NCBI GenBank assembly: GCA_964461025.1
Contig: CAYWSE010000003.1
Location: 14,247-78,246, forward strand
From: an uncultured Sphaerobacteraceae bacterium
Lineage (GTDB): Bacteria > Chloroflexota > Chloroflexia > Thermomicrobiales > UBA6265
Direction: 5' to 3'
Length of the DNA stretch: 64,000 nt
Positions 3,491 through 64,000 of the stretch are shown piece after piece. Position 1 is the first letter of the stretch, and every line of letters starts with the position of its first letter. Made by a program: the position numbers and the translations under genes. The notes beneath the pieces are model-generated. The model did not search any database and was not told the origin of the DNA. It was given only the letters and a program-made list of their open reading frames with translations.

Positions 3491-4900
3491 ATGTCTGCCT
3501 CCACCGATCGCCCCAATCTGCTTGTCATTATGTCGGATGAACATGCTCCCCACTTCACTGGAGTGCACAACCATCCGCTGGTCAGAACGCCGAACTTGGA
3601 TCGGCTTGCTGAGGAAGGGGTCGTATTCGAGAACGCCTACTGCAACTCGCCTCTCTGTTCTCCCTCGCGGATGTCCTTCATGACCGGGCGGTACGCACAC
3701 AAGATCGCCACCTGGGACAACTCGACTTCGCTCAGCTCCGACGAACCAACCTGGGCGCACCGGATGCGCTCGGTTGGGTACGACGTTGTCCTTTCCGGCA
3801 AGCAGCATTTCGTCGGCGCCGACCAATTGCATGGATTCCGCGCCCAGCTGGCCCGAGATCTCCATGCCGAGATCGCGCACGAGATGTACCGATGGTTGGA
3901 CGGTACCCCAGTCGCCGGAGAACCGTGGAAGCACATGGAAACCTCCGGTCCAGGCACAACAGTGGAAATTGATGTGGATGATCTGGTCGAGGCAGCGGCT
4001 CTCGCCTACATCCGCGACCCGGCGCGCCGGCATCAACCATGGGTGCTGAACGCCTCATTCATCGCTCCACATTTTCCGTTCGTCGTTCCGCGGGAGTACT
4101 GGGATCTCTATCCATTCGACGAGATCGATTTGCCGCGCGTGACGCGTGAATCGCTCGACGAACAACACCCGGTCTTGCGGCGCATGGCGGGGATGTTCGG
4201 GCTGGTGGACTTCCCGGAAGAAACCGTCCGGCGGGCAAGGGCCGGCTATTACGGATTGATCACCTGGCTCGATGCCAAAATTGGCCGAATGCTCGACGCA
4301 CTCGAAGAATCCGGTCAGCGTGAGAACACGATCGTCGTGTACGTCAGCGATCACGGCGAAATGGCCGGCGAGCATGGCATGTGGCGAAAATCGAACTTTC
4401 GCGAACACTCCGCCCGTATCCCGATGCTCATCTCCTGGCCAGAACACCTTCCGGCCGGCAAGCGGATTCCGGAGGTGGTCTCGCTTGTCGACATGGTCGC
4501 CACCATGCTCGACCTGACACAAGCGCCGCGCGACGACACGCTGGATGGCGAGTCGCTGCTGCCGCTCATCGACGGTTCTTCAGGAGGTACGTGGAAGGAC
4601 GAGGCCTTTTGCGAGTATCTGGCCCACGGAGTCACGAAACCGATGGCCATGTTGCGTCACGGTCGCTTCAAGCTCAACTACTACCTGGACGATCCTGTCG
4701 AGTTGTTCGATCTGGAGACGGACCCCGACGAGCGCCACAACCTCGCCGGCAACAGCGCGCATTCCTCAGTTCGCGAAGCATTACGTGCCGATCTGCTCGC
4801 TCGCTGGCATCCGATCGAACTCGAACGCCAGGTAGTCGCCAGCCAGGAGGCTCGCCACCTCATCGCCTCGGCCCAGCCTCCTCCAGCCGCGTTCCACTGA
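3491..4900 (+). CDS. Cys-type sulfatase (choline-sulfatase-like)
   Basis: Sulfatase signature CSPSRMSFMTGR after PNLLVIMSDEH, and a C-terminal DLETDPDERHNLA-type tail. AGGAG lies 5 nt before ATG 3491; the track ORF starts at GTG 3461. Confidence 0.88.
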   Translation: MSASTDRPNLLVIMSDEHAPHFTGVHNHPLVRTPNLDRLAEEGVVFENAYCNSPLCSPSRMSFMTGRYAHKIATWDNSTSLSSDEPTWAHRMRSVGYDVVLSGKQHFVGADQLHGFRAQLARDLHAEIAHEMYRWLDGTPVAGEPWKHMETSGPGTTVEIDVDDLVEAAALAYIRDPARRHQPWVLNASFIAPHFPFVVPREYWDLYPFDEIDLPRVTRESLDEQHPVLRRMAGMFGLVDFPEETVRRARAGYYGLITWLDAKIGRMLDALEESGQRENTIVVYVSDHGEMAGEHGMWRKSNFREHSARIPMLISWPEHLPAGKRIPEVVSLVDMVATMLDLTQAPRDDTLDGESLLPLIDGSSGGTWKDEAFCEYLAHGVTKPMAMLRHGRFKLNYYLDDPVELFDLETDPDERHNLAGNSAHSSVREALRADLLARWHPIELERQVVASQEARHLIASAQPPPAAFH

Positions 4901-4958
4901 GACAAGCGTAGAACCCGGCCCTGTGCCGGAATTCGACAAGCCTGCAACTTCAGACGTG

Positions 4959-5912
4959 CTACCGACCTGACAGCATCTCGACCACGGGAGCAAACGTCGT
5001 CATCAGTCGATCGGGCACGATGAAATAGGAGAATCCGAGCTCGTCTCGGATTTCCTGCAAGCGGCCGGTAACGTAATCGAGGCTACCGATGAGCACCGAC
5101 GGCATATCTCGCACGGCTGCCAGGTCGATGTCCTGCCAACCCTGGGCAGCAATGTACTGGTCGATCGCTGCGTCGGGATCATCAGTCACGATCACAGTCG
5201 GAATCAGGCTGAGCTCGATCGAATCGAAACGATCACCGGCCCCTTCCCGAATCCAGGAAACACGCTCCTGTACTGCGGCTGTTCGGCGACCCTCCGGCAA
5301 ATTGACCGCGACGCCTGTGGCCACCGATGTGGTCAGGATGCCAACGATGTCAGCCATAGCACCCGCCAATCGCAGAATTCGCGGGCTGCCTCCCCCGATC
5401 AGAATTGGGACCGGTTGCTGAATCGCCGCTGGAAAGCTCGGCAACGTGTCGAGTGAGTAATAGCGCCCGTCGTAACTCACGTCGTTCCCGGCGATCAATC
5501 CACGAAGAATCGGCAGCGCTTCAGCGAGTCTCGAAATCCGCGTACCGGCAGAATCGAATGCGATACCGGCGCGCTCATACTCCTCCGCCAGCCAACCCGC
5601 GCCGATGCCCAGCTCGAAACGTCCTCCGGAGAGCGCATCGAGGGTCGCGACCTCCTTCGCCAGAACGGCAGGATGCCGGTAATCGTTGTCGATGACCAGC
5701 GTGCCAAGGCGCAGGGTTGTGGTCAGAGCGGCGGCGGTAGCAAGTGCGGCAATTGGAGCAAACTGATGGCCGAATGGCTCGTCTACGAAGTGATCGCGAA
5801 TCAGCAGCGTGTCATAGCCCCATGCTTCTGTTTGCTGGACAAGCTCTCTCCATGCACCAGCAGTCGTGAATTGCTCGGCGACAACGCCAAAGCGAAACGG
5901 TTTTCCGGCCAC
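4959..5912 (-). CDS. LLM-class (luciferase-like) F420-dependent oxidoreductase
   Basis: 317 aa. FRFGVV...LIRDHF...RLGTLVIDNDYRHPAVLAKEVATLDALSGGRFELGIGAGW is typical of luciferase-like monooxygenase/F420 oxidoreductases. Confidence 0.85.
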   Translation of the reverse strand: MAGKPFRFGVVAEQFTTAGAWRELVQQTEAWGYDTLLIRDHFVDEPFGHQFAPIAALATAAALTTTLRLGTLVIDNDYRHPAVLAKEVATLDALSGGRFELGIGAGWLAEEYERAGIAFDSAGTRISRLAEALPILRGLIAGNDVSYDGRYYSLDTLPSFPAAIQQPVPILIGGGSPRILRLAGAMADIVGILTTSVATGVAVNLPEGRRTAAVQERVSWIREGAGDRFDSIELSLIPTVIVTDDPDAAIDQYIAAQGWQDIDLAAVRDMPSVLIGSLDYVTGRLQEIRDELGFSYFIVPDRLMTTFAPVVEMLSGR

Positions 5913-5992
5913 CCTCGTCTCCTTCCTGAGTCGAAGCAGCGATTGCTTCGAGTCGTCTGGATATGAGACGAGGAACGATAAGGAATGTCAGA

Positions 5993-6715
5993 TCAGGTCG
6001 GATAGGAGGCTTCGCGGAGTTTCCGAATCGTCTTCTCTGGTTTGGGGAGACCGCTCGCCCGAATCTGGGCTTCGGTTTCCTCGAGTGGATAGGGCAGTTT
6101 TCGGATTTCAGCAGACCAGCGGTGATCGGCCTCGCTCCACGTCAGGATGCCGTACTTGCAGCGCAGCTCTCCATCCTTGGAGTTCCCAACGCCTGACACG
6201 TCCACGAGGAGCGTCTCGTCGATCTGCCGGATGTAGCAGATGTGGATGTGACCGAAGGCGATCGCAGCCGCGACTGTTCCGTCGAGCATCGCGCGCAACT
6301 CGTCGTCAGTGAGGTCTGGGCGCAGGGCGTCCTCGACATTGTGGGGATTGGCGTGCACCACGAGGAGCTCATCTTTTGGCCCTCGGGAGCCGGGAGGGGC
6401 CACGCGATGAGAGAATGGAAGGGAGTCCAGATACGCAATACCATCGGCGCCGATGGCATCGACGGTGAACTGTTTCTCGGGTTTGTCGGTTCCGAATTTG
6501 GCATTGTCAACGAGATAGAGATCGGTGTTGCCGTGGATTACGGTCAGGTTGCGCTCCCACAGCATCTCAAGCGTTTCTCGCGGCGCAGGACCTGTTTCGC
6601 ACAAGTCACCGGCAACGACGATTTCATCGAATGGTCCTCGTTCATCGATGTCCGCCAGCACCGTCTGCAGCGCCAGACTGAATCCGTGAATGTCAGACAA
6701 CACCGCTACGCGCAT
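5993..6715 (-). CDS. metallophosphoesterase (YfcE/MJ0936-like, Metallophos_2)
   Basis: MRVAVLSDIHG...VVAGDLCETG...IHGNTD...VVHANPH...AFGHIHI are the calcineurin-like phosphoesterase motifs. I chose the ATG at 6715. The track ORF extends to 6886 with a non-homologous-looking 57-aa leader. Confidence 0.85.
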   Translation of the reverse strand: MRVAVLSDIHGFSLALQTVLADIDERGPFDEIVVAGDLCETGPAPRETLEMLWERNLTVIHGNTDLYLVDNAKFGTDKPEKQFTVDAIGADGIAYLDSLPFSHRVAPPGSRGPKDELLVVHANPHNVEDALRPDLTDDELRAMLDGTVAAAIAFGHIHICYIRQIDETLLVDVSGVGNSKDGELRCKYGILTWSEADHRWSAEIRKLPYPLEETEAQIRASGLPKPEKTIRKLREASYPT

Positions 6716-6891
6716 TTCTCGTCCGATTCCAGCGGGCCACTTGCGGCCACGTACGACACAATGGTCCCGTATAGGATAGCCAAATCCCGTTCCGGACGAC
6801 GACGCAGTCGCCGTCTGAAGTGAATGCAACCATCGTGGAGAGGCGTCACTACACGGGTCTGGTCGGAGTCGCTTCTCCAGCGACACGGTTT

Positions 6892-6908
6892 ATGATGAAT
6901 GTCATCAT
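6892..6908. promoter_or_regulatory. AT-rich palindrome ATGATGA-atg-TCATCAT upstream of / at the 5' end of the TIR-STAND-LuxR gene
   Basis: 7-bp perfect inverted repeat overlapping a TATGAT -10-like hexamer (6891..6896) in the divergent region. It is a plausible operator only if translation starts at 6974/6977. Confidence 0.3.
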
Positions 6909-9778
6909 CAACGATGGGTCGCCGGGAAAGAGTCCGCGCGATACCCCCGGCTAGACAACGGGAGACCCGGAACGTGATGCAACCTGACCAGCCGGTCACC
7001 CGTCAGCCGGGTTACGTCTTTGTCAGTTACGCCGCCGGCGATTCGACGCGAGTGCAGGCGGTCGTCGATCAACTGCGAATGTCGGGCTACCGGGTCTGGA
7101 TCGACGAGGCCGCGATCGAGGGTGGCGAGAATTACGGACCCACCATCGTCAACGCAATTCGCGCGAGTGCCGCCGTAGCGCTCTTCTGCAGCTCGTCGAG
7201 CTTCCAATCACGCAATGTTCGACAGGAAGTCGCGATCGCCTGGAAGCAAGAGCGGCCGATTCTTCCCCTTCGCCTCGAACCGATCGAACCTCCAGAGGAC
7301 TTTCAATATTGGCTGGAAGCAGCGCAGTGGCTCGATGTGACCGATCCTGATCCTGCCAACTGGCTGCCACGCGTCTCCCGGTCTCTGGACCGCTTGGGAG
7401 TCGTCCGGGACGATCCGATAGTCGAAGAACAGTCGTTCGTCGGCCAGACATTGGTCAGTAAGCGCCACGGGATCTCAGCAGCCGCCACCCCTCTATTAGG
7501 CCGGGACGAAGACATTGCCCGCATTGTGGCACTGCTGCGCGAATCCCGTCTGGTGACGTTGACTGGACCCGGAGGAGTCGGTAAAACCAGGCTTGCCGTC
7601 GAGGTTGCCAACGACTCCGGGCGCGACCTTGCCTGTGGCGCCGCGTTTATCTCGCTTGCGGCGATTCGCGACGCCAGATTTGTGATTCCGGCGGTCGCCG
7701 CGGCGTTGGGTTTTCCAAACGCAGGTTCGATATCCGATGCCGAAGCACTGGCCGCGCACCTGGGAGAGGAACCGCTCCTCCTCGTGCTCGACAATCTGGA
7801 GCAAATCATCAGCTGTGGGACGGACATCGCAGCACTCCTTTCCCTCTGCCCAGTCCTCAAGTGTCTGGCAACCAGCCGGACGCTTCTGAACATTCAGGCG
7901 GAGCAGGTCTACATGGTCGAGCCGCTGCGTCTACCTGCAACCGAAGATGCGGGAGAGTTCAGCCTTGTTCTCGAATCGCCTGCGGTTCGTCTCTTTGTCG
8001 ACCGGGTTCGCGCGTCGGATCCATCCTTCGATCCTGAGGTTGGAGAGCACGGCTCGGCAATCGCTGAGATTTGCCGGCGACTGGATGGGCTCCCACTCGC
8101 CATTGAGCTGGCCGCGGCGCGAGCGCGGCTCTTTCCACCAGCGGCTTTGCTGGCCAGACTCGAACACCGGCTTCCACTGCTGACAGGGGGACCTCAGGAT
8201 GCCCCTGAGCGGCAACAAACGCTGCGGGATGCCATCGCATGGAGTCATGATTTGCTCCCCGATGCCGCCCAGCTGCTGTTTCGCAGATTGGCGGTGTTCG
8301 TGGGCGGGTTTACCCTGGAAGCCGCAGAATCGATCGTCCAGTCGGAGAGGGAGCCCGCCAGCGCTTCCGCCGAGACGCCGGCAACTGTGGAGACGCTCGC
8401 GCTCCTCATCGATAGCAGCCTGGCCCGCCGGGTGAACGCTGAAGGTGAGCCCAGGTTCGCGTTCCTCGAAACGATTCGAGAATACGGGATCGAGCAGCTG
8501 GCTAGTCGAGGCGAACTCGAGTTCACCGAACATCGTCATGCACGTTATGTTCTGCAAATCGTGGAAGACCTGCGGCCACGAATCGAAGGCCCTGAAGGTC
8601 CCGAGATCATCAACAGGTTCGAAGTGGAGCACCCCAACATTCGGGCTGCGCTGACATACGCCATTGACTCGAAGGACGGAGAACTTGGCAACCGGCTTGT
8701 CGCGTCAATATGGAAGTTCTGGGTGGTTCATGGTCACGGTCAGGCAGCATTCCAATGGATCGAGCAAATTCTGGCGTTGCCCGGTAGCACGACGGCGACC
8801 TACCGAATGGAATCGCTCTACGCGGTCAGCAGTTTCGCACTCGAACTCGATCAGGGAGACCTTGCCCGCAACAGGGCGGAGGAGGGCCTTGCGCTGGCTC
8901 GCATCGAGCGCGATGAGCATCTCGAATCGAGAATGCTTTTCGTCCTCGGGTGGATCGCGCATCGCAATGGAGACTCGGAGCACGCGGACCAGTGTTTCCG
9001 GCACTCACTCGATCTGGCCAGGAAAGCGAGTCCCCAGGTTTCATTCGCCGAGCATATGAGCGCCCTGATCCTGGTGAACATCGCGACGATCGCGTATGAG
9101 CAGCGACGTTTCGACGATGCACTGGCAGCATGCCATGAAGCGCGATCGATCTGGCAGCGCCGGGGCGACCCCTGGGGATTGGCCATCTCGTCAGAATTTC
9201 TGGGCGTGATCGAATGCAAGCGGGGAGCGTTCGAGCAGGCAGGAAGCCTTCTTCGGCAAAGTCAGTCGCTCTATCGAGACCTGGGAGACCGCGGCGGCAT
9301 GACCAATTGCCTGGCCGGCATCGCTCTCGTTGCCGCCGGGGTTGGGCAATTGACCGCGGCTACGCGCTTTCTTTCTGCCTCGCTCAGGGCGCGGGAGACG
9401 ATCAAGACTCCTGTGCCATTGCCGATTCGTCAGGATCAGGAGGAAACGCTTTCTCTGGCCCGGTCCGAGCTTGGAAGGCGAAGGTTTGACGCGGCGTGGC
9501 AATCCGGCAGGGAGCTATCGCTGGAGGACGCTTTCGCCGAAACGTCGGTTATGCGGTTCGATCTTCGCCAGGGCGGCAGTTCATCCACGACACTCACCCG
9601 AAGAGAGCTCGATGTACTGAGGTTGATGGCGGAAGGCAAAACCGATCAGGAGATCGCCGGCAATCTGTTCATCAGTTATCGCACGACGACCACCCACGTG
9701 ACGCACATCCTGAACAAGCTCGGCGTCGACTCACGAACCGCCGCGGTCGCGGATGCCATTCGGCTCGAGCTGATCTAG
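6899..9778 (+). CDS. TIR domain - STAND P-loop NTPase (NB-ARC/AAA_16-like) - TPR - LuxR-type HTH protein
   Basis: TIR_2-like region at aa 38-150 (YVFVSYAAGD..YRVWIDE..ALFCSSSSFQSRNVRQEVAIAW). P-loop GPGGVGKT (nt 7565-7588), LLLVLDNLEQ and GLPLAIELAA. Long TPR-like helical region. C-terminal LTRRELDVLRLMAEGKTDQEIAGNLFISYRTTTTHVTHILNKLGV. The true start may be GTG 6974 / ATG 6977, with GGAG at 6961. Confidence 0.85.
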   Translation: MSSSTMGRRERVRAIPPARQRETRNVMQPDQPVTRQPGYVFVSYAAGDSTRVQAVVDQLRMSGYRVWIDEAAIEGGENYGPTIVNAIRASAAVALFCSSSSFQSRNVRQEVAIAWKQERPILPLRLEPIEPPEDFQYWLEAAQWLDVTDPDPANWLPRVSRSLDRLGVVRDDPIVEEQSFVGQTLVSKRHGISAAATPLLGRDEDIARIVALLRESRLVTLTGPGGVGKTRLAVEVANDSGRDLACGAAFISLAAIRDARFVIPAVAAALGFPNAGSISDAEALAAHLGEEPLLLVLDNLEQIISCGTDIAALLSLCPVLKCLATSRTLLNIQAEQVYMVEPLRLPATEDAGEFSLVLESPAVRLFVDRVRASDPSFDPEVGEHGSAIAEICRRLDGLPLAIELAAARARLFPPAALLARLEHRLPLLTGGPQDAPERQQTLRDAIAWSHDLLPDAAQLLFRRLAVFVGGFTLEAAESIVQSEREPASASAETPATVETLALLIDSSLARRVNAEGEPRFAFLETIREYGIEQLASRGELEFTEHRHARYVLQIVEDLRPRIEGPEGPEIINRFEVEHPNIRAALTYAIDSKDGELGNRLVASIWKFWVVHGHGQAAFQWIEQILALPGSTTATYRMESLYAVSSFALELDQGDLARNRAEEGLALARIERDEHLESRMLFVLGWIAHRNGDSEHADQCFRHSLDLARKASPQVSFAEHMSALILVNIATIAYEQRRFDDALAACHEARSIWQRRGDPWGLAISSEFLGVIECKRGAFEQAGSLLRQSQSLYRDLGDRGGMTNCLAGIALVAAGVGQLTAATRFLSASLRARETIKTPVPLPIRQDQEETLSLARSELGRRRFDAAWQSGRELSLEDAFAETSVMRFDLRQGGSSSTTLTRRELDVLRLMAEGKTDQEIAGNLFISYRTTTTHVTHILNKLGVDSRTAAVADAIRLELI

Positions 9779-9912
9779 ACCAATCGCCGTCCTTCTCAAA
9801 AACAAATACGTAGACTCCCTGAGTTCACGGAACGCCTCGCGCGGCACGGTAGACACGCATTCGATGATCGGCTTCGAGTGCGACGGTTCGACAGCGCGAA
9901 GGAGTACTCTCG

Positions 9913-10440
9913 ATGGACGGTTACACGAATCGGCGAGTTGTTGTGCAGACGCTGACCGGCCTTACGCTGGCTGTTGCCGCCAGCGGCGGCGTGAGAACCT
10001 CGCTTGCCCAGGCATCCATGTCAAGGGACGAGACGCAAGCGGTACTCGAAGAGTACGTTGCGGCGTTGGCCGGAAATGGCGATTTCTCCTCGTTCTTCGC
10101 CGAGGACATCGTGGTCTCGATGATGGATACCGGCCAGGAAGTGCGCGGCCGCGAGGAGGCGGCTGACGTCATCAACTATCTGCACAATGTTGCGTTTCAG
10201 GCCACTCCCGAGCTGAGCACCATCGTCTATGGTGAAGGTATTGCGAGCGCCGAGCTGATCTTTGCCGGCACCCAGATCGAGGAGTTCGAGGGGATTCCAC
10301 CGGTGGAAGGGGAATTCCGCGTTCCGTATTCGGTTGTCTGGGAGCTGACAGACAGCAAGATCATCAGCTTGCGCCTGTATCAATTCGCAACGACGCTGAT
10401 CGCCCACTTGACCGCACTCTCCGAGGAGTCGTCGAGCTAG
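9913..10440 (+). CDS. Tat-exported SnoaL/NTF2-like protein
   Basis: AAGGAG lies 8-9 nt upstream of the ATG. Twin-arginine signal TNRRVVVQTLTGLTLAVAASG..LAQA. The body has the SnoaL-like pattern (EEYVAALAG...VRGREEAADVINYLHN...SLRLYQ). Homologous to 60875..61324. Confidence 0.75.
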   Translation: MDGYTNRRVVVQTLTGLTLAVAASGGVRTSLAQASMSRDETQAVLEEYVAALAGNGDFSSFFAEDIVVSMMDTGQEVRGREEAADVINYLHNVAFQATPELSTIVYGEGIASAELIFAGTQIEEFEGIPPVEGEFRVPYSVVWELTDSKIISLRLYQFATTLIAHLTALSEESSS

Positions 10441-10515
10441 AGGCCCCGAGCTCCCCGGAGGTCTTCTCTGGGGAGCTCATGACAGTTGCCGGCTTTCCTG
10501 CATTGAACGAGGAGA

Positions 10516-11016
10516 ATGAACGACGTGATCACACGAACTCAGGGGATGGCGAACCGGTTCGAAGCCGCCAGTTGCCAGGTATCAAACCGTATCGAGCAGT
10601 GCAACGACCTGGAGCTGCGGGCGCATTGCGCTGCGGAAGCGTGCACCGTTGCCGCCCTGGCGAGTCACGTCGCCCGGGTGCACGAACTGACAATCAGCTG
10701 GATCGCGGCCATGCTCGCGGGTGAAAGTCTTGCCGGGCTGACCATGGCGGACATCGATCAGGCGAATCAGGAATGGTTCGCGAATGACGCGGACCGCCGC
10801 AAAGACGACGTCCTGGCGATGCTGGACGCCAATCGCCAGGACGCAGTGACGTTCGTTCGGCAACTCGCTGACGGCGATCTGGACCACTCTGCCGCGTTCG
10901 GCCCGTTCAACGGCGCGGTGATCAGCGTTCAGACACTGATCGAGCAGGTTCTGATCGGTGATCCGCTCAATCATCTGCGGAGCATCGACTCGGCACTGGC
11001 CAACGTCGCCGACTGA
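10516..11016 (+). CDS. DinB-family (DinB_2/MDMPI_N-like) protein
   Basis: 166-aa four-helix-bundle-type sequence with His residues in DinB-like spacing (ALASHVARVH...PLNHLRSI). GAGGAG precedes the ATG. Confidence 0.65.
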   Translation: MNDVITRTQGMANRFEAASCQVSNRIEQCNDLELRAHCAAEACTVAALASHVARVHELTISWIAAMLAGESLAGLTMADIDQANQEWFANDADRRKDDVLAMLDANRQDAVTFVRQLADGDLDHSAAFGPFNGAVISVQTLIEQVLIGDPLNHLRSIDSALANVAD

Positions 11017-11106
11017 GCAGGACGAGGCCTTGCCGCAGTGGAGCGCTTCAACGGGCGACAACAGGTTATGGGTCGGTGATCGGTATGCCCAACGCACCCG
11101 CGTTCG

Positions 11107-11385
11107 CTATTCCGCCGGGAAAACGACCTTCCACTCATAGATGACCGCACTGTCGACAATTCCCGGCGTGGTTCGGAACGGGTCATTGGCAACGATCGCC
11201 TCGACGTCGGCCTGGCTGTCACCGTTGTAGATCATCAGTGCGCCCGAATCATCGGTAAATGGCCCTGACTCGTGCAGCTTTCCCTCGTCGAGCATGCGCT
11301 GCAGGAACTCCCGATGCGACGGACGAGTGGCCACCCGAAGCTCGTGGTTGTCGCTGTACTTCACAAAAATCGCGTACTTCGGCAT
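11107..11385 (-). CDS. YciI-family protein
   Basis: 92 aa: MPKYAIFVKYSDN...RPSHREFLQRMLDEGKLHESGPF...GALMIYNGDSQADVEAIVANDPF, the classic YciI pattern. Confidence 0.85.
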   Translation of the reverse strand: MPKYAIFVKYSDNHELRVATRPSHREFLQRMLDEGKLHESGPFTDDSGALMIYNGDSQADVEAIVANDPFRTTPGIVDSAVIYEWKVVFPAE

Positions 11386-11648
11386 AACTCCATTCCTTCC
11401 CCACTCCCCGTTGCGCCCTACGTGCCGAGCGCTCTTGGTAGTCTACTCAAGTTCGTGGTGTGGCTCGGCTAGTTGCGCTTTGACTGCTCAGCGCCAATCA
11501 GCGCGGCTCGCGATCCCATATGTCGTGATCCCATACAATGTGAGTAGTCTTCCGTCGGGGAATCCGCACGATTCATTTTGGCTTGGATTGTGGGGAGCGC
11601 TTAGGCGACACCCGCGGGAGAGTCGCTGTCGCGCTGTGAGGGTAACGC

Positions 11649-13175
11649 ATGTCCGCCCCGGAACGTTTGCTCACAGGAGAAGGACAGTCAACGATGGACC
11701 CGAATACTGACCAGCGGCCTAGTGTATCCCGCCGGGGATTTCTCAAAGCAGGCAGTGTGAGCGCAGCCGCCGCGGCAGCTGCCACCGTGGGCATCGTGCC
11801 GTCCTCACAGTTACGGGCCGCAGCCCAGGAGACACAGACGTCGAGCCCACAAATACTCCTGAAGGGCGGCCGGGTCGTAACACTCGACCCGGTACTCGGA
11901 GACTTTCAAGTAGCCGATGTCTTGATCGATGGTGAGAGCATCGCTGCCATCGCACCGGAAATCACGGCTGCCGACGCCGAGGTGATCGACGCCGCGAACA
12001 TGTTGGTGATGCCAGGTATGGTTGACGCCCATCGTCACACCTGGCAAGCCGCAATCAAGCACGTCGCGCCCGATTCAGACTTGTCGGGGTACTTCGGGCA
12101 AGTGCTCGCCTCGTTCGCGCCTGTCTACCGACCTGAAGACGTATACATCGGGACGCTGATCGGCGCGTTGGAGGCCCTTGACTCGGGTGTTACGACGCTC
12201 TTCGACTGGTCACATATCCAGCACACGCCAGAACACACCGATGCCGCAATTGGTGCGCTTCACGATGCGGGGATACGTGCCGTGTTCGGCTACGGTTTTC
12301 CGAACACGGGTTCGGAGTGGTTCTTCGAGAGCCAACTCGAGCATCCTCAGGATGCTCGTCGGGTGCGAACACAATACTTTTCCGCAGAGAACCAGCTGGT
12401 AACCATGGCAATGGCCCTGCGCGGTCCTGAACTCTCGACGATCGCTGTCACGATTCACGACTGGGGTCTTGCGCGCGAACTGAACCTGCCGATATCGGTG
12501 CACGTCGGTAACGGCTCGTTCGGTGTGCCCTACCGGGCCATCGAGCAGCTCGCCGACGCAGGTCTCCTGGGTGCAGATACTCAGTACGTACACAACGTTT
12601 CCTTGACCGATGCCGCAATCGACCTTATCCGGGAGACTGGCGGAACCGCGGTAGTCACCCCAGCTGTCGAGATGCAAATGGGATTCGGAATGCCGGCGGC
12701 CGGGCGTTTCTGGAACCGAGGCATGCGGCCGGGTCTCGGCATCGATGTGATCACTTCAACGGCAGGAGACCTCTTCACCCAAATGCGCACCGCCCATCAA
12801 ATCGAACGGCTGCTGGCCGCGCTGGATCCCAACGAGCGGCTGGCGCCAACTGTCCACGACGTGCTGGAGATGGCCACCATCGACAGCGCGCGATCTATAT
12901 GGCTGGGTGACAGGATCGGGACTCTGTCTCCTGGAAAGGCCGCCGATGTTGTACTTCTCCGCACCGACTCGTTGCACATGACCCCCGTAAACGACCCGGT
13001 AGCGGCCGTCGTCATCAGTGCGAACTCAGGCGATGTTGATACGGTTCTGGTGAGAGGACGTGTGCGTAAACGAGGTGGAACCCTGATCGACGTGGATCTG
13101 GCGCAACTTCGCGCAGGGGCCCTCGAATCACGCGACTATCTGATTCAAGCGTCGGGATACGGAGCAACGGCCTGA
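11649..13175 (+). CDS. Tat-exported amidohydrolase (TRZ/ATZ / cytosine-deaminase-like)
   Basis: Canonical Tat motif SRRGFLKAGSVSAAAAAA. Metal-binding MPGMVDAHRHTW (HxH) and later histidines (SVHVGNG). Alternative ATG start at 11694. Confidence 0.88.
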   Translation: MSAPERLLTGEGQSTMDPNTDQRPSVSRRGFLKAGSVSAAAAAAATVGIVPSSQLRAAAQETQTSSPQILLKGGRVVTLDPVLGDFQVADVLIDGESIAAIAPEITAADAEVIDAANMLVMPGMVDAHRHTWQAAIKHVAPDSDLSGYFGQVLASFAPVYRPEDVYIGTLIGALEALDSGVTTLFDWSHIQHTPEHTDAAIGALHDAGIRAVFGYGFPNTGSEWFFESQLEHPQDARRVRTQYFSAENQLVTMAMALRGPELSTIAVTIHDWGLARELNLPISVHVGNGSFGVPYRAIEQLADAGLLGADTQYVHNVSLTDAAIDLIRETGGTAVVTPAVEMQMGFGMPAAGRFWNRGMRPGLGIDVITSTAGDLFTQMRTAHQIERLLAALDPNERLAPTVHDVLEMATIDSARSIWLGDRIGTLSPGKAADVVLLRTDSLHMTPVNDPVAAVVISANSGDVDTVLVRGRVRKRGGTLIDVDLAQLRAGALESRDYLIQASGYGATA

Positions 13176-13368
13176 CGAACAACACCTTCGCGTGCTCCTC
13201 CAGTCGATCCTGTGGACGATGAATCCAACCGCTCCGCTTTCACTTCGCATGTGTATGGTCACATCGGTCACGGACGTGTTCGTCCTGGGCAAACTATTGA
13301 TAGGCTACGCTTTCGAAGAGCAAAATGTGCTCTTGTGACGCGATCGAAGGTACTCCGGCAGGTGTTGC

Positions 13369-16068
13369 GTGACCGGACAAAGTGAAATGCCGGCGGTCGC
13401 CGGAACAAGCGTGCCCATGGTCCCACTCCGACGCCAGTATCTTGACATCAAGGCTCGATTCCCAGACACCATTCTCCTTTTCCGGCTGGGCGACTTCTAC
13501 GAGACCTTCGAAGAGGATGCGTACGTCGCTTCCTCGGTGCTGGATATCGTCCTCACGGGCCGGGAGATGGGCAAAGGCCAGCGCGTGCCAATGGCCGGCA
13601 TCCCCTACCACGCGGCCGAGGGGTATATCGGCCGCCTGATCGCCGCCGGTCACAAAGTGGCGGTCTGCGAACAGGTCGGCGAGGTAACCAAAGGGCGAGG
13701 ACTGGTCGATCGCGACGTTACGAAGGTCATTACCCCCGGCACGGTTACCGAGCCCTCGATGCTCGACGAAAACCGCAACAACTACATCGCCGGTGTCGTG
13801 ACCGGCGGCAACCGGGCCGGAATCGCATATGCCGACATCACAACCGGAGAGTTCGCGACGACGGAACTCAATTCTGAGACGATTGAGGAAATGCACCTGG
13901 CGGTAGGTCGGGAGCTGCAGCGCCTTAACGTTGCGGAAATCGTCATGCCCGCAGAGATTTCCTCGAACGGCGATGACACGGCGCCGGGATGGTTGCCGTC
14001 TGGTCTGGCGTCCGGCGAGACCGATGCCTGGCACTGGCGGCTCGACCGGGCAGAGGAGCGTCTCAAGGGTCATTTTGGCGTCGAGATGCTGGACGGATTC
14101 GGTTGCGCCGGCAAACCGGCCGCGATCCGCGCTGCCGGGGGATTGCTGCACTATCTCTCGGAAACCCAGCTCTCCAGTCTGAAGCAACTGCGAACGCTGA
14201 CAACCTACTCCACCACTACCTTCATGACCCTCGATGCGCAAACACGTCGCAATCTGGAGCTGATCGAGAGCACGCGCGGCGAACGAAGGCATAGCCTGCT
14301 CGGCGTATTGGATGAGACCCGGACGCCGATGGGCGCTCGTTTGCTGCGCCGCTGGATCAGCCAGCCACTGATCGACCGTCCGGCGCTCGAACGACGGCAG
14401 GAAGGGGTCGCCTGGTTTCACCAGCAAGCAGGAGTTCGCACCGAGCTGCGGAACGGACTCAGCCAGGTCGGCGATATCGAGCGACTGACAAACCGTGCGC
14501 TGAGTGCCGCGGCGTCGCCCCGAGAGCTTGGGTTGCTGCGGGGTTCGCTTGCGATTCTGCCGGAGATCGCCGGAATCGTTCGCGGGGCGCCGCATGTTGC
14601 GGATCTCCCCGACCTCGCGGATGTGCATAGACTGCTGGAGCAGGCGATCGTCGAGGAACCGGCCGCCGTGCTGGGACGGGGAAACGCGATTCGGCCAGGT
14701 TTCGCCCCCGAGCTCGATGGGCATCGGGGTCGGGCCAAAGAGGCGCGCGACTGGATTGCCGGTCTGGAGCGCTCTGAACGCGAGCGAACCGGAATCAGAT
14801 CGCTCAAGGTTGGCTACAACAAGGTTTTTGGCTACTACCTGGAGATCACGACGGCAGCGCTGGCCACTGCCGAGCGAGACCGGAGGGCGACCGGCGACGA
14901 CAGCGCTGTGCTGCCCGACGAGTACATACCCAAACAGACGCTAGCCAACGCAACGCGCTACTTCACGCCTCAGCTGAAAGAGTACGAGACGATCGTTCTC
15001 AATGCCGAAGAGATTCTCAACGAAATAGAGACCGACGTTTTTCGGCGGGTGATGTCAGAGGTGGCGGGCTCGTCTAGCCGTCTGCTCGATGCCGCGGCCA
15101 CGATCGCCGAGCTGGACGTTTTGTCCAATCTGGCGGATGTGGCTGTCGAACACAACTACACCCGTCCCGAGCTCGACGACTCCAGCGCAATAGAGATCAG
15201 CCGCGGCCGGCATCCGGTGCTGGAAACGGTTCTGCGAACGGGTGAGTACGTGCCCAACGACGCACATCTCGACGCCGGCAGCGCCCAGGTGATCATCCTG
15301 ACCGGACCAAATATGGCCGGGAAGAGCAGCTGGCTGCGGCAAGTGGCGTTGATCACGCTGATGGCTCAAATCGGGTCGTTCGTGCCGGCGGAGCGAGCCA
15401 GGATCGGTTTAGTCGACCGGATCTTCACGCGCATCGGCGCGCAGGACGACATCGCCACCGGTCAGAGCACCTTCATGGTCGAAATGCTCGAAACGGCGAA
15501 CATCCTCAATCACGCGACACCGCGCAGTCTGATCGTGCTCGACGAAATCGGCCGCGGCACGAGCACGTATGACGGACTGGCGATCGCTCGCGCAGTTGTC
15601 GAATACGTCCACAACACGCCGCGGCTTGGCTGCAAAACGCTTTTCGCCACCCACTACCACGAGCTGACCGAACTCGCCGGAATACTTCCCCGAGTTCGCA
15701 CCTACCGCATGGATGTTCTGGAAGAAGGCGACCGGGTGGTGTTCCTTCGTCAGGTCGTGCCGGGCGGCGCCGACCGGTCATACGGCATCCACGTCGCCGA
15801 GCTGGCGGGCATCCCGAAGGCGATTGTCCGTAGAGCCTCCGAAGTGCTCGCCGAACTCGAGCAGATGTCGCGTGCCGGCACAGACAAGGATGCTCGCCGC
15901 GCTGCCATGCAAGCGCCGCTTCCCGAGCAGTCAACGCAAGTCCAACTGACGATGTTCGCTCCGGCTGACCCAATCATCGAAGAACTGAAGAGACTCGACG
16001 TTGAGTCACTGAGCCCTATAGAGGCGATCACGAAGCTCTATGAGCTGCAGAAGCAGACGTCCTCCTGA
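13369..16068 (+). CDS. mutS: DNA mismatch repair protein MutS
   Basis: MVPLRRQYLDIKARFPDTILLFRLGDFYETFEEDA mismatch-binding N-terminus. Walker A GPNMAGKSS and DEIGRGTSTYDG. 899 aa with a GTG start. Confidence 0.97.
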   Translation: MTGQSEMPAVAGTSVPMVPLRRQYLDIKARFPDTILLFRLGDFYETFEEDAYVASSVLDIVLTGREMGKGQRVPMAGIPYHAAEGYIGRLIAAGHKVAVCEQVGEVTKGRGLVDRDVTKVITPGTVTEPSMLDENRNNYIAGVVTGGNRAGIAYADITTGEFATTELNSETIEEMHLAVGRELQRLNVAEIVMPAEISSNGDDTAPGWLPSGLASGETDAWHWRLDRAEERLKGHFGVEMLDGFGCAGKPAAIRAAGGLLHYLSETQLSSLKQLRTLTTYSTTTFMTLDAQTRRNLELIESTRGERRHSLLGVLDETRTPMGARLLRRWISQPLIDRPALERRQEGVAWFHQQAGVRTELRNGLSQVGDIERLTNRALSAAASPRELGLLRGSLAILPEIAGIVRGAPHVADLPDLADVHRLLEQAIVEEPAAVLGRGNAIRPGFAPELDGHRGRAKEARDWIAGLERSERERTGIRSLKVGYNKVFGYYLEITTAALATAERDRRATGDDSAVLPDEYIPKQTLANATRYFTPQLKEYETIVLNAEEILNEIETDVFRRVMSEVAGSSSRLLDAAATIAELDVLSNLADVAVEHNYTRPELDDSSAIEISRGRHPVLETVLRTGEYVPNDAHLDAGSAQVIILTGPNMAGKSSWLRQVALITLMAQIGSFVPAERARIGLVDRIFTRIGAQDDIATGQSTFMVEMLETANILNHATPRSLIVLDEIGRGTSTYDGLAIARAVVEYVHNTPRLGCKTLFATHYHELTELAGILPRVRTYRMDVLEEGDRVVFLRQVVPGGADRSYGIHVAELAGIPKAIVRRASEVLAELEQMSRAGTDKDARRAAMQAPLPEQSTQVQLTMFAPADPIIEELKRLDVESLSPIEAITKLYELQKQTSS

Positions 16069-16188
16069 CGGCATAGACCCCCCGTGGTAAGACGGTTCAT
16101 GCTATCCTTACCTTCATCTGCAAGTAATGCCGATTTGCTTCGCCTTGATGATCTGAAATGCCGCGGGCAATGCGCCGGGAGAAACACA

Positions 16189-16464
16189 ATGAAGGAGACC
16201 TACTACGCAACAATCACCTCGAAGGGACAGATCACGATTCCGAAAGCCGTTCGAGAGACCCTGGCGGTCTATTCGGGCGACCGCGTGGCCTTTACCGTCG
16301 AAGGCGACAACGTCGCGGTCGAGGGCATCTCATCCGACATCGAGGACCTGATCGGTTCGATCAAGCCGCTGACCGACGAGGATCCTGGCGACTTCGACGA
16401 CATGATCGAGCGCGCATGGTCAACCGCGGCCATCGAACGTTGGGAACGAGTCAATCGCCAATGA
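16189..16464 (+). CDS. vapB: AbrB/SpoVT-MazE-type antitoxin (VapB-like)
   Basis: MKETYYATITSKGQITIPKAVRETLAVYSGDRVAF is the SpoVT/AbrB swapped-hairpin motif. Its stop overlaps the next start in ATGA (16461-16464). The track ORF starts earlier, at 16084. Confidence 0.85.
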   Translation: MKETYYATITSKGQITIPKAVRETLAVYSGDRVAFTVEGDNVAVEGISSDIEDLIGSIKPLTDEDPGDFDDMIERAWSTAAIERWERVNRQ

Positions 16465-16886
16465 TCTTCCTGGATGCCAACTACTTCCTGCGACTGATGC
16501 TTGCTCCACGTAATCAGCGAGAAGAAGAGCGGATGCATGCCGCAGCCCGCCTCATGAGGCTTGTTTCGTCCGGCGCCAGAACCGCCACCACGTCCGAAGC
16601 AGTCCTCGCCGAGGTGATATTCGTTACCCTCGATCCGAAATACGGGTTGAGTCGTGAGGATGTCGCGTGGCGACTCAAGCGATTCCTGACGATGAAAGGT
16701 CTTGTGTCGCCGCATCTGGACGTTTGGCTCCATGCGGTAGAGCTGTGGGCGGCGAACAGGAAGTTGAGTTTTGTCGACGCGTTCTCTGCCGCCCTGTCAC
16801 TGAAAGAAGGATATGAGCTCGCGACGTTCGATCGCGAGCTTTCAAAGCTCGACGGTCTTTCGCTCTACGAACCTGACTTTGCGTGA
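16461..16886 (+). CDS. vapC: PIN-domain ribonuclease toxin (VapC-like)
   Basis: MIFLDANYFL (first acidic residue), ..SEAVLAEV.., ..SFVDAFSAAL.., ..LATFDREL.. are PIN acidic-quartet-type positions. Embedded in track ORF 16158..16886, whose first 100 aa overlap vapB out of frame. Confidence 0.85.
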   Translation: MIFLDANYFLRLMLAPRNQREEERMHAAARLMRLVSSGARTATTSEAVLAEVIFVTLDPKYGLSREDVAWRLKRFLTMKGLVSPHLDVWLHAVELWAANRKLSFVDAFSAALSLKEGYELATFDRELSKLDGLSLYEPDFA

Positions 16887-16913
16887 GCAATCACTGCGCA
16901 ACGTGAATGCGCG

Positions 16914-18374: not shown

Positions 18375-18399
18375 TGTGGCACGTTAGCACTCGGGTCGT

Positions 18400-61495: not shown

Positions 61496-64000
61496 CTAGA
61501 TCAGGCCCTGACGAAGCGCGGCCGTAGCAGCCGCGGTGCGCGACTCGACTCCGAGCTTCGACATGATGCTGGCGACATGGGAAGAGACCGTGCGCTTGCT
61601 GAGAAAGAGCTGCTCGGCGATCTGTTGATCGGTGAACCCTTCCGCCAGCAAGGAGAGCACGTCGAGCTCTCGGGCCGAAAGGCGACTGCGGGGCGTCCTG
61701 GAAGCATCGACGTGCGCTCCGGCGCCCTGCACCACGGCGGTGAGCTCACCGACGATCTGCTCGATCGACAACGAGCGGCCCGCGACGAAAACGCGATCGA
61801 ATCGCGCCGAGCCAAGCTTCGAGCGGGCTTCTTGGAGAAGTCTTGCGTGTTCCTCCTCGTTGTTCGGGTCGCTGCCGGCGCCGGTTTCGTCGCGAATGCG
61901 CGTGGCGACGGCTATCGTGCGGACGCCTTGATCGACAGCTCCAGTCCTGATCAACGAACGCCCTGCTTCGTCGAGCACTTCCGCCATCTGGGCAGGATTG
62001 CCGAGATTTGCGCCGAGCGTGGCGGCCTGACTGATCAACGTCAGCGCGTCAGCGGAATCCCCCTGCAGGTTCTTTGCCGCGGCCATATTGATCATCGCGA
62101 CGACAGCGGAATCGCGATCGCCTGACTCCCGAAAGCCAGTCGCGGCTTCAGCAGTCAGGTCGAATGCTTCCGGCAGGTTCCCCAGATGGAACTGGACGGC
62201 GCCGAGATTCATGATCACGGTGTAGATGGCGAATCGATCACCGATTTCGCGGAGCAGTTCGATGCTTTGCGAGAAGCGCTCACCCGCTGTCTCCATCTCG
62301 CCGCGCCATCCGGCAACCTGACCCAGATTGGTGAGTACGACAGCAAGACCTCGCGTGTTTCCGCCTTCTCGTTCGAGCGCCTCGCATGCTTCGAGCGTCT
62401 TGGCCGCGGCATCGAGGTCCCCTTTGTGTAGATAAACGAGCCCGAGATTGTTCAACGCGCGGGCCGTCAGACCCGCATCGCCAATCCCCCTCGCGCGCTC
62501 GGCGGCGCGCTGATGCAGATCGACCGCCCGTTCGAGCTCACCATTGGCATCCGCCAGGAGTCCGAGAATCGTCTCTGCGCGCGAAGCAACTTCCTCGCTC
62601 TTTCCACCACCGAGCCTCAAGGCGTCGGAAATGTATTGGGACGCTTTCTCTATTCGGAACAGCCGGTACGCCAACCACCCCGCCGACAGCAATGCGCAAG
62701 CCCGCAGCAGATCGTCGGCGCCCGGCGCAGCGGCTGTTGCCTGTTCCGTCCGGTCCAATCCTTCCGCGAGAAGTCCGGAATTCGACCAGAAGAGCGGCAG
62801 ATGCGCAAGAATCTGCAGAGCAGCATTCCCGTCATCGTCCTCCATGGACCATGTCAGCGCGGCGCGAAGATTGTCGACTTCCGTCATCAGCTGCGATTGC
62901 CGGAAGACCTGACCGGACCCGAACTGGTCGCGCTCGAACGACGCCGCCAGCTCCATCAGGTAGTTCGTCAATCGGCGACGACCAACAACCTGTTCAGCAG
63001 ACGCACCCGGAAGACCACCAGCGAACTCGCGAATCGACTCCAGCAACAGGTATCGATTCGTTCCCTGTCGCGATACCAGGCTACGGTCGACGAGCCTCTG
63101 GAGCCGCAAAGAACCCAAATCTGGATCAGCAATTGACGTTGGCTCGGGAGCGATGAGCGACGCTGCCAGCTCTGCCGACAACCCAGCAGGTGGGACGGCG
63201 AGGCGCACCATCGCCCGCCGTTCGTCGTCGTTCAGCAGATCGAAGCTCCAGGCAATCGCCTCGCCAAGGGTGCGGTGCCGCGCGGTCGCCGAACGCTCAC
63301 CGCCGATGAGAACCGGAAACCGTCGTTCAACGCTCTGCAGCAGCTCATCCAGCGAGTATCGGTCCAGCAGTGGAGCAGCGAGCTCGATCGCCAGCGGCAA
63401 ACCATCGAGTCGCCGCACGATTTCAGTGATCGTGGGTGCGTTGTCCGGCGTGAGTGCGAACGAGGTCTGTCGGAGCTGTACTTGCTGGACGAACATCCGA
63501 ACCGCCGGACTCGCCCGCCGCAAATCCGAAACGACGGCTCCGTGCGGCGGAACGGCGAGCGGTTCGAGCAGATGCACATGCTCGACCGATATGCCGAATG
63601 GCGCTCTCGACGTGGCGAGCATGATCCAATCCGGCAATGAGGCCAGAAGCGTCTCGACGAATCCTGCTCCATCAAGCAGGTGTTCCACATTGTCGAGAAG
63701 CAGCAATCCGTTGTTCTGCGCCAACGCGTCGATCAGCGCTTCGCCGGGTTCGCGGCGTCCACTCTGCACGCCTGCTGCGGTGGCGACGGCCAGCGGCAAA
63801 CCCGTTGCGTCGGGCGTTGCGGCAAGATCGGTGAAGATGGTCCTGCCCACATCGTTTCGCAGTGAATCGAGAGCGGTAATCGCCAACGCCGTTTTGCCAA
63901 CGCCGGCCGGACCAGTGATCGTGACGAGACGAACGCCATCCGACCTCAGTCGTTCGAGTAGCAGGGCCAGATCGTTTTCTCGACCAATCAGGGCGCGAAC
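61496..64000 (-). CDS. STAND P-loop NTPase (NB-ARC/AAA_16-like) - TPR - LuxR-type HTH protein; N-terminus beyond the right edge
   Basis: The frame is open beyond track start 63886. Reverse translation of 63887..64000 gives ...LIGRENDLALLLERLRSDGVRLVTITGPAGVGKTALA (Walker A). Then LLLLDNVEH, GLPLAIELAA, TPR-like repeats and C-terminal LSARELDVLSLLAEGFTDQQIAEQLFLSKRTVSSHVASIMSKLGV. Confidence 0.88.
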   Translation of the reverse strand, partial: VRALIGRENDLALLLERLRSDGVRLVTITGPAGVGKTALAITALDSLRNDVGRTIFTDLAATPDATGLPLAVATAAGVQSGRREPGEALIDALAQNNGLLLLDNVEHLLDGAGFVETLLASLPDWIMLATSRAPFGISVEHVHLLEPLAVPPHGAVVSDLRRASPAVRMFVQQVQLRQTSFALTPDNAPTITEIVRRLDGLPLAIELAAPLLDRYSLDELLQSVERRFPVLIGGERSATARHRTLGEAIAWSFDLLNDDERRAMVRLAVPPAGLSAELAASLIAPEPTSIADPDLGSLRLQRLVDRSLVSRQGTNRYLLLESIREFAGGLPGASAEQVVGRRRLTNYLMELAASFERDQFGSGQVFRQSQLMTEVDNLRAALTWSMEDDDGNAALQILAHLPLFWSNSGLLAEGLDRTEQATAAAPGADDLLRACALLSAGWLAYRLFRIEKASQYISDALRLGGGKSEEVASRAETILGLLADANGELERAVDLHQRAAERARGIGDAGLTARALNNLGLVYLHKGDLDAAAKTLEACEALEREGGNTRGLAVVLTNLGQVAGWRGEMETAGERFSQSIELLREIGDRFAIYTVIMNLGAVQFHLGNLPEAFDLTAEAATGFRESGDRDSAVVAMINMAAAKNLQGDSADALTLISQAATLGANLGNPAQMAEVLDEAGRSLIRTGAVDQGVRTIAVATRIRDETGAGSDPNNEEEHARLLQEARSKLGSARFDRVFVAGRSLSIEQIVGELTAVVQGAGAHVDASRTPRSRLSARELDVLSLLAEGFTDQQIAEQLFLSKRTVSSHVASIMSKLGVESRTAAATAALRQGLI

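Follow-up and report, generated by a model that had tools for sequence, protein, structure and literature searches.

A rare TIR-STAND-TPR-LuxR protein of Thermomicrobiales whose locus looks like that of a local gene regulator with an added TIR domain

NLR-like STAND proteins are usually seen either as immune executioners, with TIR and other effector domains, or as transcription factors, as in AfsR and the MalT/LAL regulators. A gene in a 64,000-nucleotide stretch of DNA from an uncultured Sphaerobacteraceae bacterium of the Thermomicrobiales (hereafter the window; contig CAYWSE010000003.1, positions 14,247 to 78,246, assembly GCA_964461025.1) raises the question of whether both kinds of output can sit on one switch, since its product joins a TIR domain, a STAND ATPase, a TPR array and a LuxR-type helix-turn-helix (HTH) in one chain. 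Our analysis indicates that this combination is real, rare and uncharacterised, and that its context suggests a local gene regulator to which an enzymatic head has been added, rather than a gene for phage defence. The reading we favour, held tentatively and a little short of even confidence, is that of a ligand-gated NLR-type transcription factor for the adjacent SnoaL- and DinB-like genes, whose activation would also assemble a TIR NADase.

The gene is a long open reading frame (ORF) on the forward strand at 6899..9778, stop included, that encodes 959 amino acids (aa) and is intact with all motifs kept. The N-termini of homologues fall 5 to 20 residues ahead of the FVSYA strand, in line with M27, and the sequence GGGAGA at 6960-6965 precedes the corresponding ATG at 6977..6979; the true start is therefore probably this ATG, or the in-frame GTG at 6974 as an alternative, rather than the ATG at 6899. 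The TIR domain (aa 39-166; 7013..7396) is followed by the nucleotide-binding domain of a STAND NTPase (7505..7921), which is recognised from its motifs, the family alignment and the structural model, and by helical (ARC1-like) and winged-helix (ARC2-like) domains (7934..8506), which are recognised from motifs, the model and a profile match to AfsR. A TPR-like helical repeat array of about 17 helices, the presumed sensor, occupies 8516..9547 and is seen in the model, in TPR matches and in Pfam TPR_12, which scores 54.8 bits against a cut-off of 30.1 in three stretches. The chain ends in a LuxR/GerE-type HTH DNA-binding domain (9590..9775), where Pfam GerE matches aa 898-950 (E 1.8e-17; 63.1 bits against a cut-off of 23.5) as an intact domain and a PDB search returns the DNA-binding domains of GerE, VraR, NarL and DosR. 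All of these features lie on the forward strand, and the full-length AlphaFold model is of high confidence, with a predicted local distance difference test score (pLDDT) of 89.9.

Pfam TIR_2 matches aa 40-149 (E 2.4e-22; 80.1 bits against a cut-off of 28), and an AlphaFold2 model of the TIR built on 37 homologues (pLDDT 88.4) has the flavodoxin-like TIR fold, with strand beta-A (YVFVSYA) at 7013-7033, strand beta-B (RVWIDE) at 7091-7108 and the BB-loop (IEGGENYG) at 7115-7138 of the forward strand. In a Foldseek search of the PDB, the top matches of this fold are SPARTA TIR-APAZ structures (TM 0.70-0.75), an NAD+-bound tetramer included; further matches are Hydra TRR-2, SARM1, MyD88 and AbTir, and MyD88/MAL filaments are among them. 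Glu110 (7226..7228, forward strand; motif S-R-N-V-R-Q-E), in the first part of helix alpha-C, stands at the position of the catalytic Glu of NADase-type TIRs: it is kept in 37 of 37 aligned TIR-STAND homologues, in which 15 other positions are also invariant, and a profile alignment places it on the Glu of the Cat1 motif WDELEQ (W-x-x-x-E). Every position that is invariant in the TIR-STAND-TPR family, E110 included, is kept in our protein, and between diverged relatives of the full architecture the TIR is conserved as well as the NTPase (53-57% versus 53-55% identity). A search of the PDB with a 72-aa stretch around the Glu, made for a residue-level alignment with SARM1 or SPARTA, gave spurious antibody matches only, and the assignment of Glu110 therefore rests on the Cat1 alignment together with the invariance in the family. 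By the position of this Glu and by its fold matches, the TIR is of the NADase type, and NAD+ cleavage itself is predicted. These results bear out much of a first-pass annotation made from the letters alone, which had read the 959-aa ORF at 6899-9778, a TIR_2 domain at aa ~38-150 with a Glu at nt 7226-7228 in the catalytic place of NADase TIRs, a TPR-like region and a C-terminal LuxR/FixJ HTH; a predicted structure, which it had proposed as a check on the TIR, has the canonical fold, with AbTir among the matches and the Glu present.

The same annotation had described the ATPase as an NB-ARC/AAA_16-type NTPase, and here only part of the description stands: the domain is a STAND NTPase of the NB-ARC type, and its AAA_16- or MalT-like character is not borne out. 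Walker A (GPGGVGKT, aa 223, K229; 7565-7588), Walker B (LLLVLDN, aa 293, D298; 7775-7795), the sensor-1 Arg motif TSR (aa 325; 7871-7879) and the GxP motif GLPLAIELAA (aa 397; 8087-8116), all on the forward strand, are invariant or nearly so in a family alignment of 92 sequences. A profile of the family matches the AfsR chains 8k60/8jke with E 3e-41 over some 640 positions that cover both NTPase and TPR, and a fold search with the full-length model finds the archaeal STAND-TPR protein PH0952, the plant TIR-NLR RPP1, NRC3 and Apaf-1. On our protein the AAA_16, NB-ARC and nSTAND models of Pfam all score under their cut-offs (NB-ARC 16.2 bits against 23.5, confined to the P-loop region; AAA_16 27.7 against 32.6), as does TPR_MalT (27.4 against 45). 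Despite these sub-threshold scores, the motifs, the AfsR profile and the fold matches make the predicted STAND assignment unmistakable, and by sequence comparison the STAND-TPR core is AfsR/NB-ARC-like rather than MalT/AAA_16-like. Membership of the MalT family was rejected on score, the NCBIfam MalT model matching the HTH only, and the FxSxx-COOH TIR/TPR system (NCBIfam NF040586) was likewise set aside at 24.6 bits against a cut-off of 300, in the P-loop region only. Proteins with this core form a very large family whose ends are interchangeable; other N-termini in it include an XRE HTH or a cyclase (PF00211).

The frequency of the architecture was estimated by domain-by-domain BLAST of the best 120 homologues and the protein itself (relatives are referred to below by our P and L labels). 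Four of these, our protein included, are TIR-STAND-TPR-LuxR, 74 are STAND-TPR-LuxR, 33 are TIR-STAND-TPR and the remaining 10 have other architectures, cyclase-fused or tandem. Two of the 33 (P0004, P0007) are full-architecture genes split by frameshifts in a long-read assembly, in which the GerE domain follows in another frame, and counts of called proteins therefore underestimate the fusion. Frameshifts that split these long genes are present at 12561-12785 of L002, at 8213-8368 of L086, and in L084 and L085 (long-read metagenome assemblies ERZ25039504 and ERZ25039531). The closest relative, P0001 (59% identity), has lost its N-terminus at a contig end. A TIR-only scan of 1.84 billion representative proteins gave 88 relatives at E<=1e-30; 59 of the 150 best TIR matches are at least 800 aa long, and one of the 59 (P0171) has a GerE domain. 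Species-representative genomes yielded no relative when scanned with the single whole protein and were then searched with a TIR-only alignment, which found the TIR subfamily at 77 loci, mostly in Chloroflexia/Thermomicrobiales. About one in 97 genes of the subfamily in these genomes has a LuxR HTH, and the gene concerned, L066, is built on a different scaffold, a true AAA_16 (LAL-type) STAND; among its own best 120 homologues two have TIR and GerE, about 35 have the TIR alone and about 83 have GerE alone. This second scaffold carries the fusion in three Thermomicrobiales proteins (L066, P0304, P0318). From the counts of 1/59 and ~1/97 and the recurrence on the L066 scaffold, it follows that the TIR and LuxR combination is rare in these data (roughly 1-2% of the TIR subfamily) yet recurrent. 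At least five diverged lineages on the AfsR-like scaffold, and the second scaffold, carry it, all of them in Thermomicrobiales-type Chloroflexota. Within the same TIR subfamily, tandem arrays of three to five genes of about 1060 aa each were observed in the Chloroflexia loci L037 (6804-19343), L036 and L065, the scanned members being TIR-AAA_16-TPR, and in short Acidobacteriota proteins (L051) this TIR is fused to DUF4384.

A domain-wise comparison of nearest neighbours shows how such proteins are put together. In our protein and in P0002/P0004 the TIR is nearest to TIR-STAND-TPR proteins and the NTPase and TPR are nearest to STAND-TPR-LuxR proteins; in P0003/P0007 and P0014 both TIR and NTPase come from the TIR family, and the TPR-HTH half of P0003/P0007 and that of P0014 belong to two different LuxR lineages. 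The TIR of our protein and that of P0002 are of different subtypes (39% identity), and P0171 represents another lineage, with 37-44% identity to the other full-architecture proteins. From these differing domain junctions it follows that the fusion arose several times by recombination. The comparison thus indicates that two expanded paralogous families, TIR-STAND-TPR and STAND-TPR-LuxR, contributed the pieces of this mosaic protein, which is no unique invention, and that its N-terminal TIR was recruited by recombination from the first of the two families. TIR-AP-ATPase-TPR fusions of Actinobacteria and Chloroflexi have been described (Kaur et al. 2020, PMC7159879). The TIR-STAND-TPR proteins in our set have TIRs 50-60% identical to that of our protein, with the same invariant residues, and NTPases 50-57% identical; they differ from it in a TPR array of only 23-34% identity, in ending after that array without a DNA-binding domain, and in having no linkage to SnoaL genes. 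The high expansion of both parent families, with their common conserved NTPase, would invite mis-assembly, and with the frameshifts in the relatives' long-read assemblies it is the ground on which the fusion might be taken for a chimeric assembly of paralogues or a decaying pseudogene. We regard such an artefact as very improbable, as the ORF is intact with its motifs conserved and the same architecture stands on separate contigs from at least five samples (P0002, P0003, P0014, P0171, P0004/P0007).

The regulatory reading comes from what lies directly downstream. The next gene (9913..10440, forward strand) encodes a SnoaL_2/NTF2-like protein by Pfam, with a Tat-like signal peptide, and is a candidate target gene; it is followed by a gene for a DinB/MDMPI-like four-helix-bundle protein (10516..11016, forward strand; Pfam and homologues). 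Both are conserved as downstream neighbours. SnoaL homologues follow the regulator in L080 (63%), L002 (53%), L083 (59%) and L085 (58%; overall about 47-63% identity), and DinB homologues follow in L080 (55%) and L081 (41%), with DinB_2 in L086. The order of regulator, then SnoaL and/or DinB, is thus found in the window, L080, L002, L083, L081 and L086, and also in L085 and L084, where the regulator has no TIR. These two loci were reached through a protein search with the C-terminal 400 aa, which otherwise returned mostly fragments. The L085 regulator is 48-57% identical to ours and has fragments of MutS and luciferase-like genes nearby, the L084 regulator is 47% identical, and no TIR-coding sequence was found upstream of either. 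At the 77 TIR-STAND loci of the species-representative genomes, no SnoaL homologue was found nearby (0/77). The survey of homologous neighbourhoods proposed in the first-pass annotation accordingly reveals a SnoaL/DinB cassette that is conserved among the relatives, and the locus in the window is no defence island.

Between the regulator and the SnoaL-like gene, an alignment of the loci reveals a conserved intergenic block at 9805..9831 on the forward strand (AATACGTAGACTCCC...CACGGA), a candidate operator or promoter element. It carries TACGTA (9807-9812) set in AATACGTARRYTCCCYGA, often followed by CACGGA. This TACGTA box stands directly 3' of the regulator stop and is invariant in 8 of 8 aligned loci, whether the regulator has a TIR or lacks it. 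L086 adds a ninth locus, where the block follows the GerE stop after 16 nt, and some loci have two or three boxes. TACGTA occurs four times in the window, against a shuffle mean of 8.6, and a metagenome scan with the 25-nt motif gave one further locus (L083), too few for statistics. About 45 nt downstream of the block is a conserved stem-loop (9855..9883, forward strand), in which 9855-9864 pairs with 9874-9883; 90% of the cells in its alignment are paired, eight of nine pairs show a compensatory change, and the covariation score of 0.62 drops to 0.15 or less once the partners are slid. The stem-loop was found ahead of SnoaL/DinB genes in the window, L080, L002, L083, L081, L086, L085 and L084. 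It would form part of the leader of the mRNA downstream, where it may act as an RNA element, so far unrecognised, in cis-regulation or mRNA stability; an Rfam scan of 6000-11500 gave nothing relevant, and it is in no Rfam family. A scan of 6700-10600 for sigma-70 promoters and intrinsic terminators found nothing above shuffled background. A palindrome at 6892-6908, which the first-pass annotation had offered as an operator, was discarded: its 7-bp arms are at chance level, as repeats of this kind number 88 across the window (about 0.25 per 180 nt), and it is missing upstream of the three relatives examined (L001, L002, L081). The TACGTA block is the best candidate for an operator of the LuxR domain, or a promoter element, and most likely the LuxR HTH would control the adjacent genes, which encode the exported SnoaL-like protein and the DinB-like protein, by acting at it.

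The mechanism we propose draws on general properties of the modules. STAND proteins oligomerise when they bind a ligand and exchange nucleotide, the DNA-bound form of LuxR HTH domains is a dimer or oligomer, and the NADase sites of TIRs form across TIR-TIR interfaces. A ligand would bind the TPR array and release an ADP-locked state, whereupon the STAND module would oligomerise; oligomerisation would gather the LuxR HTH domains for binding to DNA, presumably at the TACGTA box, and would at the same time gather the TIRs into composite NAD+-cleaving sites. The second output would then be NAD+ consumption or a signal derived from ADP-ribose (ADPR). That one sensing event has both outputs, LuxR-driven transcription of the adjacent genes and NAD+ cleavage or an ADPR-derived signal from the TIR, is a possibility we consider doubtful as a whole.

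Several points weigh against the favoured reading. The domains and their homologies are observed, as are the invariance of the Glu, the mosaic make-up of the protein, the synteny and the conservation of the cis-elements, whereas ligand-driven oligomerisation, DNA binding at the TACGTA box, the regulon and the NADase activity are steps that we infer. The His of the NLR MHD switch is missing: the site that holds MHD in NLRs and F/Y-HD in AfsR reads F-L-E here (aa 522-524; 8462-8470, forward strand), and the family consensus, nearly invariant in 92 sequences, is M-L-E, from which it follows that this is a STAND family without the ADP-contacting His. Some other factor could be what reads the TACGTA block, as an element of a promoter or leader. 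The nearest TIR-less relatives run the same cassette, with the same SnoaL neighbour and TACGTA box, so that the contribution of the TIR may be small. Asn106 (7214-7216), four residues before Glu110, is an invariant Asn in this TIR subfamily where Cat1 has a Trp, and the Trp of W-x-x-x-E is the norm in most TIRs. Lastly, the TIR subfamily is often multi-copy per genome with tandem arrays, which is behaviour like that of conflict systems.

This last point, with such arrays in Chloroflexia, is among the evidence for an NLR-like conflict or antiphage sensor, in which the TPR array would detect a cue of an invader and TIR oligomers would deplete NAD+ or signal, leading to abortive infection. The HTH would be auxiliary and could serve in autoregulation, as a DNA tether, in DNA sensing, or, in the manner of the WRKY domain of the plant protein RRS1, as an integrated decoy. 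The TIR belongs to the catalytic type, with NADase TIRs as its top structural matches, and the Aga_TIR and SAVED_TIR models of PADLOC match it; 31 of the TIR-STAND-TPR relatives are truly without an HTH, and in these the TIR is the sole candidate effector. The overall fold of our protein is like that of the plant TIR-NLR RPP1. The surroundings of the gene argue the other way: there is no defence island, the neighbours are metabolic or housekeeping genes with weak generic PADLOC matches only, and the protein itself is matched in its TIR part and its HTH part and by no PADLOC model over its full length, so that for none of the known antiphage systems covered (Avs, bNACHT, Thoeris etc.) was a full-length match with partner genes found. 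In addition, the SnoaL neighbour and TACGTA box are also kept where the TIR is absent, and TPR divergence within the clade is not above that of the NTPase. We therefore judge an antiphage role unlikely, and the immune-sensor reading raised by the first-pass annotation is disfavoured by the context of the gene.

An ordinary regulator of the LAL/AfsR type, whose TIR is no enzyme and would instead mediate oligomerisation or autoinhibition or bind a nucleotide ligand, would account for the TIR-less relatives working with the same cassette and for the invariant Asn at -4 from the Glu. Scaffolding TIRs exist, the MyD88/MAL filaments among the structural matches being of this kind, and elsewhere in the family the N-terminus holds a different module, for instance an XRE HTH or a cyclase. 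We nevertheless find such a non-enzymatic TIR quite unlikely, as the Glu and 15 further positions are invariant across 37 proteins, in some of which the TIR is the only possible effector, and as NADase TIRs in their NAD+-bound form head the fold matches.

A comparison with known systems places the protein, under the favoured reading of a ligand-gated transcription factor with a TIR NADase, between several designs. AfsR of Streptomyces (a large SARP, SARP-NB-ARC-TPR; 8k60/8jke) shares with it a homologous NB-ARC-like STAND and TPR core and has been described as an NLR-type transcription factor with a DNA-binding domain on an NB-ARC-TPR switch (bioRxiv 10.64898/2026.09.02.748808). In AfsR, however, the DNA-binding domain is an N-terminal SARP/OmpR-type winged HTH, while our protein has a C-terminal LuxR HTH and an N-terminal TIR. 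With the LAL/MalT regulators it shares the logic of a STAND ATPase, a helical-repeat sensor, a C-terminal LuxR HTH and oligomerisation driven by ligand and ATP; unlike it, they have no TIR, and its ATPase is NB-ARC/AfsR-like with a weak TPR_MalT match. LAL proteins of the AAA_16 type with an N-terminal TIR do exist in Thermomicrobiales (L066, P0304, P0318), in a protein family different from that of our protein.

Enzymatic heads have also been joined to LuxR domains elsewhere. In Rv0386, Rv1358 and Rv2488c of Mycobacterium tuberculosis, an ATPase-TPR scaffold joins a cyclase and a LuxR domain. These proteins combine in one chain, like ours, a nucleotide-signalling enzyme that depends on oligomerisation and a LuxR HTH (PMC3466318). 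They belong to Actinomycetota and their enzyme is a class III adenylyl cyclase in place of a TIR; cyclase-STAND-TPR relatives (PF00211) also occur among the homologues of the core of our protein. To our knowledge, the way in which the two outputs are coupled has not been established for the Rv0386 group. The only characterised chain known to us with a TIR, a STAND NTPase, a repeat sensor and a C-terminal DNA-binding domain is the eukaryotic RRS1. This Arabidopsis protein is TIR-NB-ARC-LRR-WRKY (PMC6187137, PMC5435354). It has LRRs for the TPR and WRKY for the LuxR domain, the WRKY is an integrated decoy, and RRS1 is paired with RPS4; no evidence for a pairing of the RRS1/RPS4 kind was seen for our protein. 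The first-pass annotation had stated that no characterised protein is known to combine an NAD-cleaving-type effector domain and a DNA-binding output on one STAND scaffold. This holds to the extent that we found no description in the literature of a TIR and a LuxR domain on a bacterial STAND scaffold and that no NCBIfam equivalog or other curated family covers the TIR-STAND-TPR-LuxR protein, but precedents for the design exist in the Rv0386 group, AfsR and RRS1.

Further features of the locus and its relatives were recorded. The SnoaL-like protein has a twin-arginine-type signal peptide (TNRRVVVQTLTGLTLAVAASG), and because of this we predict its export, an unusual feature in an enzyme of the SnoaL/NTF2-like kind. 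On the 553-kb contig of L084, at least four STAND-TPR-LuxR genes are clustered at 4096-20558 with SnoaL genes in between, which suggests a repeated regulator-plus-SnoaL cassette. The window itself holds a second STAND-TPR-LuxR gene at 61496..64000 on the reverse strand (GPAGVGKT, LLLLDNVEH, GLPLAIELAA and a C-terminal GerE), whose N-terminal part lies beyond the window end; it is 32% identical to our protein over aa 199-959, and no TACGTA box follows its stop. Upstream and divergent, at 5993..6886 on the reverse strand, is a metallophosphoesterase gene (Pfam Metallophos) whose link to the system is uncertain, a 66%-identical homologue being found near the TIR-less relative in L085; its ORF start (GTG 6886) is probably over-extended, because the Pfam domain begins at aa 58. 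Other neighbours in the window, by Pfam, are an LprG-like lipoprotein, an ABC transporter, a sulfatase, a luciferase-like monooxygenase, an amidohydrolase and MutS. Genes for luciferase-like monooxygenases recur near many loci, which we put down to the background abundance of that family and not to linkage.

In conclusion, both kinds of NLR output are united on one switch in this protein and its relatives, an arrangement that arose several times and on two STAND scaffolds. The locus offers testable material in a candidate operator (the TACGTA box), a small candidate regulon (the SnoaL-like and DinB-like genes) and a covarying leader hairpin, and the natural TIR-less relatives are ready controls. 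If both ends are active, the protein would offer a natural example, outside immunity, of gene regulation coupled to TIR/NAD+ signalling, and would show how modules are exchanged between immune and regulatory NLRs. If the two-output reading is true, it would represent a prokaryotic switch that ties gene regulation directly to NAD-based signalling, and one that was repeatedly built in Thermomicrobiales from immune-type and regulator-type families by recombination.

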